DNA of 64,000 nucleotides from Acidobacteriota bacterium (GCA_025463215.1 JAOBWF010000296.1:14098-78097); one strand, 5' to 3'; shown: positions 63,843 through 64,000, numbered from the stretch's first letter. Notes: generated from the letters alone by a model not told the origin. Numbers and translations: made by a program.

Positions 63843-64000
63843 TTACGGTGCCATCACGTAGCCTGCCGCCGTCCACGCCTCGACGCCGCCCTTCAACGCC
63901 TTGACGTTGGTGAAACCCTCGCCGCGGTACTTCGCTGCCTGACCGGCAGCGCTGCCTTCGTTCGGTCAGGCACAGTAGAAGATGACCTCCTGCGTCTTCG
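63843..64000 (-). CDS. rhodanese-domain protein, probable selenoprotein (partial, 5' end outside the window)
   Basis: KTQEVIFYCA-[TGA 63968-63966]-PNEGSAAGQAAKYRGEGFTNVKALKGGVEAWTAAGYVMAP*; rhodanese signature continues past the TGA. Confidence 0.8.
63933..63951 (-). promoter_or_regulatory. candidate bacterial SECIS hairpin
   Basis: mRNA CGCUGCC-GGUCA-GGCAGCG, 7-bp stem; G-initiated loop begins 21 nt after the UGA. Confidence 0.7.

Follow-up and report, generated by a model that had tools for sequence, protein, structure and literature searches.

The last positions of the DNA stretch analysed here (the window, 64,000 nucleotides in all) carry, on the minus strand, the 3' part of a gene for a small rhodanese-fold protein whose active site contains an in-frame TGA codon. 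The explanation that best accounts for the observations jointly, and one that we hold to be very probable, is that this is a functional rhodanese selenoprotein gene, in which UGA codon 66 would be decoded as selenocysteine (Sec) through SelB and a hairpin located just downstream, and in which the chemistry would be that of a Cys64/Sec66 pair. The first reading of this locus, as a Sec rhodanese with a SECIS element, was essentially right; the kind itself is known. Rhodanese selenoproteins with a C-x-U motif are already catalogued, both in NCBIfam (NF041203) and in reviews of 2022 and 2026, so that their existence is not new, and those published are bioinformatic predictions. The word 'hidden', used in an earlier note on this DNA, is apt with regard to annotation, since table-11 gene calling yields fragments of the gene, and inapt with regard to the kind of protein.

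The gene and its in-frame TGA codon

The window corresponds to G000:C222:14098-78097, part of a MAG of 441 contigs (87.9% complete, 7.2% contamination) from a soil Acidobacteriota of the Vicinamibacterales-like kind. On the minus strand, positions 63843-63998 translate as KTQEVIFYCA-TGA-PNEGSAAGQAAKYRGEGFTNVKALKGGVEAWTAAGYVMAP-TAA, which bears out the frame that had been proposed, with the TGA at 63968-63966 and the terminal TAA at 63845-63843. The window ends within the gene, whose 5' part extends 163 nt beyond. Read in the contig, the whole frame comprises 106 codons and a stop (L001:1941-2261(-), equal to G000:C222:77940-78260) and begins with an ATG start preceded by a Shine-Dalgarno-like GGGGGAGGGA, both of which lie past the window end. 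The ORF track had been said to miss this gene, and indeed table-11 ORF lists give fragments only. The following features were identified in the window.

63843..64000, minus strand: 3' part of the predicted rhodanese selenoprotein gene, codons 55-106 and the TAA (frame, Pfam, AF2 model)
63966..63968, minus strand: UGA codon 66, third residue of C64-A65-U66 (ortholog conservation, Cys homologs)
63972..63974, minus strand: TGT codon of Cys64, the canonical position of the rhodanese catalytic Cys at the end of the central beta-strand (HMMER alignment)
63933..63951, minus strand: SECIS-like hairpin CGCUGCC / GGUCA / GGCAGCG (14/14 alignment, covariation, RNAalifold)
63843..63845, minus strand: TAA stop codon (frame reading)

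The encoded protein reaches the gathering score of the Pfam family Rhodanese (PF00581; 35 bits versus a cut-off of 22.2, over residues 43-100), and is a single-domain rhodanese-fold protein of 106 residues, probably with a cytoplasmic location. A divergent ORF of 212 codons, L001:2218-2856(+), lies past the window end and, when its longest start is taken, has about 44 nt in common with the 5' end of the rhodanese gene; it encodes L-A-G-C after a hydrophobic stretch, which we take to be a lipobox-like motif.

In a collection of species-representative genomes, 13 orthologs (46-78% identity) were found, and all of them keep the TGA at codon 66, within the active-site motif [FY]-[FY]-C-A-U-[PS]. 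The MAGs in which they occur are labelled as Acidobacteriota/Vicinamibacterales, Methylomirabilota, Thermodesulfobacteriota/Syntrophobacterales and 'delta proteobacterium'. The C-A-U motif is also found in the translated ortholog of genome G221, and the orthologs of G008 and G017 contain one in-frame TGA each. In a phylum-wide sample of 401 genomes, only the present MAG (G000) and G221 gave matches at E <= 1e-18. Sequence identity amounts to 46-77% before the TGA and 46-89% after it, and is equal or higher after the TGA in 12 of the 13 orthologs, the exception being L056 (46% after versus 48% before). The orthologs share an intact frame that runs through to a common C-terminus.

These comparisons bear on the possibility that the TGA is a true stop, in which case the locus would be a pseudogene, or its product an N-terminal fragment of 65 residues, and what follows the TGA would be the decaying remains of a rhodanese-like frame. 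It is a fact that table-11 ORF calling ends at this codon, that many database gene calls end there too, and that the MAG encodes RF2. A remnant, however, would gather frameshifts and other stops, whereas here the frame is intact, the TGA is retained across three phyla, and the stretch behind it is generally at least as well conserved as the one before it; furthermore, a product of 65 residues would, according to the structure model, be devoid of two helices and a strand of the fold. We regard a true stop as extremely improbable. A sequencing error, which the earlier note had named as a way in which its reading could fail, is ruled out by the conservation of the TGA across independent assemblies and not by reads: among four runs examined, a single run covers the codon and is identical there, and this run is the probable source of the assembly and hence not independent.

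A search of 1.84 billion cluster representatives returned 1602 matches at E <= 0.001, of which the best 150 were inspected and 46 full-length homologs chosen from these were aligned. In these TGA-free homologs the residue most often found at position 66 is Cys (22 of 46), followed by Ser (12), Asp (4), Thr (2), Ala (2), and Gly, Trp, Glu and Phe (1 each). The Cys/TGA pairing that had been suggested as a check is thus found at this position, and the earlier concern that homologs might have Trp or some other residue instead is answered by Cys, rather than Trp, being the commonest. Since Ser, Asp or another residue stands at position 66 in 24 of the 46, a second chalcogen is not essential to the fold family. 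Two other cysteines are far more constant: position 64 is Cys in 42 of the 46 aligned homologs, and Cys25, in the motif L-L-V-C-A-Y (at about L001 2187-2189, past the window end), is Cys in 45 of the 46, above the conservation of position 66.

The public gene calls in this family carry several kinds of irregularity. Among the best 150 of the 1602 matches, gene calls that stop exactly at ...FYCA/G number about 16, and those that stop at ...IIFY about 27. Some database entries (P0010, P0049, P0075 and P0003, for example) have Trp at the column of the TGA, and P0003 has W at both active-site positions, with its own stop also read through as W; the metagenome loci closest to P0003 have TGA at all three of these places. 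The scattered Trp readings are consistent with TGA translated under a TGA=Trp code. Entries P0009, P0017 and P0108 shift frame or skip the active-site region, and other miscalls, P0014 among them, have long spurious N-terminal extensions, shift frame or 'splice' around stops. Truncations, Trp readings and frame jumps of this kind are what in-frame stops typically produce in gene calling. Taken with the conservation in orthologs and Cys homologs, the comparisons lead us to predict that UGA66 is decoded as Sec and that the gene is a functional selenoprotein gene.

The hairpin downstream of the TGA and the selenocysteine machinery

The perfect hairpin that the earlier note had described, with its loop 21 nt past the UGA, is present at 63951-63933 as CGCUGCC-GGUCA-GGCAGCG, i.e. 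a stem of 7 bp closed by a 5-nt loop, the stem starting 14 nt and the loop 21 nt 3' of the UGA. Folded as a single sequence, the region does not stand out from shuffled versions (z = -0.89; an equal or better fold in 38 of 200 shuffles), and the hairpin by itself is not special in a genome of 67% G+C; it rises above chance only by comparison. The same columns form the hairpin in all 14 aligned orthologous sequences (the 13 orthologs and this gene), with 95.9% of the cells paired, and none of 500 shuffles matched this pairing or the covariation. Sliding the 3' partners lowers the pairing to 25-56%, and the same helix was predicted independently by RNAalifold. Compensatory changes occur in two of the seven pairs (columns 28/44 and 30/42), from U-A to C-G or G-C and from G-C to U-A. 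Part of the conservation of the hairpin is at the protein level, because it encodes S-A-A-G-Q-A-A. With the TGA in columns 10-12, the third codon positions of the alignment fall in columns 27, 30, 33, 39, 42 and 45; the compensatory pair 30/42 therefore consists of two synonymous Ala sites, and the invariant pair 33/39 lies on sites that the protein leaves free.

The apical loop reads GGUCA or GGUCG in 11 of the 14 sequences, AGGCA in two Methylomirabilota and AGGCU in L056. The letters GGUC are also those of the apical loop of the E. coli fdhF SECIS, and on this basis the hairpin had been called fdhF-like. The likeness holds insofar as both hairpins closely follow the UGA within the coding region and carry G and U in their small apical loop. 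Stem and spacing are different: the fdhF element, as described in PMC8659212, starts 11 nt from the UGA and has a bulged U17, with G23/U24 in the loop, whereas the hairpin found here has a spacer of 14 nt and no bulged U. A more general description of bacterial SECIS elements, given in PMC1088965, is that of a stem-loop just 3' of the UGA with a small, G-containing apical loop, and the hairpins of all 14 sequences are of this form. A scan of L001:1800-2400 against Rfam at E <= 10 returned no SECIS-type family; the sole match, to the sRNA ASdes (14.6 bits, E = 2.5), is due to chance. That the hairpin is a SECIS-like element serving UGA66 is a well-supported prediction, and it is comparative evidence that points to recruitment of SelB by it.

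Two other pairings in this region were considered. The overlapping palindrome that the earlier note had brought up as a possible competitor does exist, as the 12-nt GGCAGCGCUGCC at 63956-63945; as a conserved, competing element it was rejected, since just 2 of the 14 orthologous sequences have it in perfect form, and so it looks incidental. Furthermore, the context of the UGA, CCUGACC (63962-63970), is the exact complement of GGUCAGG (63938-63944), which comprises the loop of the putative SECIS and the first bases of the stem, all on the minus strand, and a longer single-sequence fold favours this pairing. It too was rejected as a functional pairing, with 90.8% of cells paired, no compensatory changes, and 105 of 500 shuffles doing equally well.

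A Sec-containing protein implies that the organism encodes the machinery for Sec insertion, and the search for selA, selB, selC and selD that had been proposed on these grounds was successful in the same MAG. It contains a tRNA-Sec (61 bits; called SeC(tca) by ARAGORN), selA (535 bits, summed), selB (313.5 bits; the match lies near a contig end and covers positions 1-345 of the 581 in the model) and selD (349 bits; it has an in-frame TGA of its own), all above the curated cut-offs. That these genes belong to the same cell is concluded from binning and composition in a MAG with 7.2% contamination, the tetranucleotide correlation of the sel-gene contigs with C222 being 0.97 against a bin median of 0.974. 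Among 61 related genomes, selA was found in 50, including the ortholog-bearing G008 and G017. In selD (G000:C127:3769-4701(+)) the TGA is codon 11 of the matched stretch, in the context S-C-A-G-U-A-S-K, from which it follows that the selenophosphate synthetase is probably a selenoprotein too.

The MAG has at least five TGA-bearing rhodanese genes. Three of them are near-identical and longer (G000:C262:56673-57011, C128:136-468 and C197:13312-13644, all on the minus strand), with a hydrophobic N-terminus, the motif L-Y-C-T-U-P-S-E and scores of 89-91 bits to NF041203 (72-91 bits for the rhodanese paralogs of this genome as a whole); each is followed, 16 nt after the UGA, by a 6-bp hairpin with a GUU loop. 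These three may be true paralogs or may reflect strain mixing, given the 7.2% contamination. A fourth rhodanese selenoprotein paralog, G000:C336:14080-14427(-), has the motif T-Y-C-A-U-T-D-E and a perfect hairpin of 7 bp with a 5-nt loop and a 14-nt spacer. In two congeners the orthologs of this fourth gene have Cys (L037 and L039; T-Y-C-A-C-S-D-E), and there the hairpin is reduced to 4 bp or absent, while the downstream peptide is kept. This contrast between Sec and Cys forms, which comes from two close relatives and from the C336 paralog rather than from the subfamily of the window gene, points the same way, in favour of the hairpin as a putative SECIS.

The UGA could also be read without selenium, either by a code in which TGA stands for Trp or Gly or by near-cognate suppression, and the hairpin would then be a by-product of an Ala-rich peptide. 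The database entries with Trp at the column and the insignificant single-sequence fold can be quoted in favour of this. Against it stands the use of TGA as a stop, which in this MAG it otherwise is: prfB, encoding RF2, is present (486 bits versus a cut-off of 370), and 32 of the 55 mechanically called ORFs in the window that are 300 aa or longer end in TGA, making it the commonest terminator of long ORFs. Several of the 13 orthologs themselves terminate at TGA, and among the U-x-U relatives described below a further TGA terminates 77 of the 80 loci (best 80 of 454), with the sequences diverging beyond it. The Trp residues of P0003 correspond to TGA in its closest loci, and in that entry even the stop was read through. 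Also against it are the full gene set for Sec insertion, the compensatory changes at synonymous sites, and a column that holds Cys rather than Trp in 22 of 46 homologs. We consider it highly improbable, and Sec at codon 66 remains the preferred reading.

Fold, active site and related rhodaneses

An AF2 model was built from an alignment of 62 sequences with Cys in place of Sec (pLDDT 89.3, pTM 0.83). Foldseek gave 65 PDB matches at E <= 0.001; those listed are rhodanese domains, E. coli GlpE (1gmx) being among the top fold matches (TMq 0.79). The solved chain closest in sequence is 6mxv (E = 2.6e-9), which matches the C-terminal half only. HMMER aligns Cys64 with the catalytic Cys of solved rhodanese domains, for which a gap of two residues is needed. 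In the model, the strand of residues 59-63 is followed by just C-A-U and then by a helix (67-81); the usual rhodanese active-site loop is replaced here. GlpE and PspE of E. coli, like other single-domain thiosulfate sulfurtransferases, share the size, the fold and the Cys at the end of the central strand. The sequence similarity is weak (24.7 bits to the NCBIfam GlpE model, versus a cut-off of 102), and the active-site stretch of the protein studied here is C-A-U-P-N-E, with Sec at +2 and no Arg or basic cradle.

The best NCBIfam match is NF041203, 'rhodanese_LYCAU, rhodanese-related (seleno)protein', which bears out the statement in the earlier note that Sec-containing rhodaneses had been predicted in bacteria. 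Common to both are the rhodanese fold, the motif [LF]-Y-C-A-U (F-Y-C-A-U here) and Sec two residues past the catalytic Cys. The match nevertheless scores only 59.6 bits versus a cut-off of 115 and aligns residues 45-104 only, which is below the equivalog threshold, and the protein has an N-terminal half of its own (LLVCAYDDEAKC) and falls 20 residues short of the model length. Ten further clade members and Cys homologs were compared with NF041203 and all ten scored 54-70 bits, likewise below the cut-off. On this sequence evidence, the clade appears as a sister subfamily of the broad C-x-U kind, outside the threshold of NF041203, and is probably a subfamily without a curated model. As its members score under the cut-off, annotation pipelines truncate the gene.

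A further group of relatives was found when metagenome contigs were searched with P0003, the database protein most closely related to this one. This gave 454 relatives, and the best 80 were taken (L058-L137). All 80 loci have two in-frame TGAs one codon apart, in the motif F-Y-U-[A/G/V]-U-P (U-A-U in 75, U-G-U in 4 and U-V-U in 1), so that the position of Cys64 is a TGA in every one of these 80 soil loci. The same hairpin is present in 79 of them, 14 nt after the second UGA and 20 nt after the first; the lone locus without it has a 3-codon deletion. Apparently, a single predicted SECIS serves two UGAs, at distances of 20 and 14 nt. A maximum-likelihood tree was computed from 38 rows, midpoint-rooted and with the root as assumed; in it, the 11 U-x-U rows sampled fall into a single clade (100/98), which is nested within the C-A-U group of the Acidobacteriota (96/92). 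For this tree, C was used for Sec as well as for Cys, and the Sec/Cys label is thus not in the data. The U-x-U form is absent from the table of the 2026 review. A 'rhodanese-related sulfurtransferase' with U-x-U was noted in 2007 in the metagenome of the Olavius algarvensis symbionts (PMC1976440); it resembles the soil clade in having a second Sec beside the first in a rhodanese active site, and differs from the gene in this window, which has C-A-U.

We propose the following mechanism. At UGA66, the conserved hairpin 14 nt downstream would recruit SelB carrying Sec-tRNA(Sec), so that selenocysteine is inserted, termination by RF2 is avoided and 40 more codons are translated up to the TAA. In the protein, Cys64 and Sec66 most likely constitute a redox or chalcogen-transfer dyad, as suggested by the geometry of the motif in a model made with Cys for Sec. 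One of the two residues, Cys64 or Sec66, would take up a sulfane sulfur (or selenium) atom or attack the disulfide of a substrate; the other would then resolve the resulting intermediate by forming a selenenylsulfide within the protein, to which a diselenide would correspond in the U-x-U sister clade. Cys25 lies at the end of the adjacent strand, where rhodaneses usually have an acidic residue, which it presumably replaces. From the topology of the fold it could be a further resolving thiol, and may represent a third redox residue.

The protein could also be a selenoprotein in which Sec66 is not part of a redox dyad. Cys64 would then carry a persulfide as in GlpE and PspE, with Sec tuning the loop, or Sec would be a selenium carrier that hands selenide to SelD. 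This is compatible with the alignment of Cys64 to the catalytic Cys of solved sulfurtransferases, with its much stronger conservation (42 of 46) compared to position 66, and with the abundance of Sec users in a genome that has at least five TGA-bearing rhodanese genes and a predicted Sec-containing SelD. Less easily reconciled with it are the replacement of the canonical loop, seen in the two-residue gap of the HMMER alignment, and the exchange of Cys64 for Sec in the sister clade, which is more in keeping with a paired chalcogen motif than with Sec as a spectator. Nor did the gene neighbourhoods of the 13 orthologs connect the gene with selD or with any pathway for sulfur or selenium. Of the 70 ORFs of at least 110 aa in these neighbourhoods, 62 were compared with Pfam (the eight left out being those that overlap the rhodanese gene itself), and no family recurs across lineages; the families found repeatedly are peptidase M13, in two loci, and MscL/MscS, also in two. 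All in all, we see such a role for Sec66 as a real but lesser possibility, and favour the Cys64/Sec66 dyad.

Meaning for the family and its hosts

Extending the interpretation to the family as a whole, the short 'LLVCAY...FYCAU' proteins could be a distinct, uncurated selenoprotein subfamily in which the rhodanese fold of persulfide carriers has been turned into a chalcogen-pair oxidoreductase, with a strained Se-S ring in C-A-U, an Se-Se ring in the derived, soil-abundant U-x-U form, and one 7-bp hairpin for both UGAs. We offer this as a speculative proposal that is rather unlikely to hold in its entirety. If it is true, spacings of at least 14 and 20 nt within one mRNA would be compatible with the bacterial rule for the distance between UGA and SECIS.

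The public gene calls of this clade are systematically wrong, and the nearest curated model falls short of recognising it; with a model built for the clade, a selenoprotein that is widespread in soil would be recovered. The gene would also add to the evidence of heavy selenium use by Vicinamibacterales-like Acidobacteriota, as seen in the occurrence of selA in 50 of 61 genomes and the presence of at least five TGA-containing rhodaneses in this one. Finally, the C-A-U and U-x-U sister clades would provide a natural series on the benefit of a second selenium in a thiol-type active site, and one in which the limit to the distance between UGA and SECIS could be tested in bacteria.
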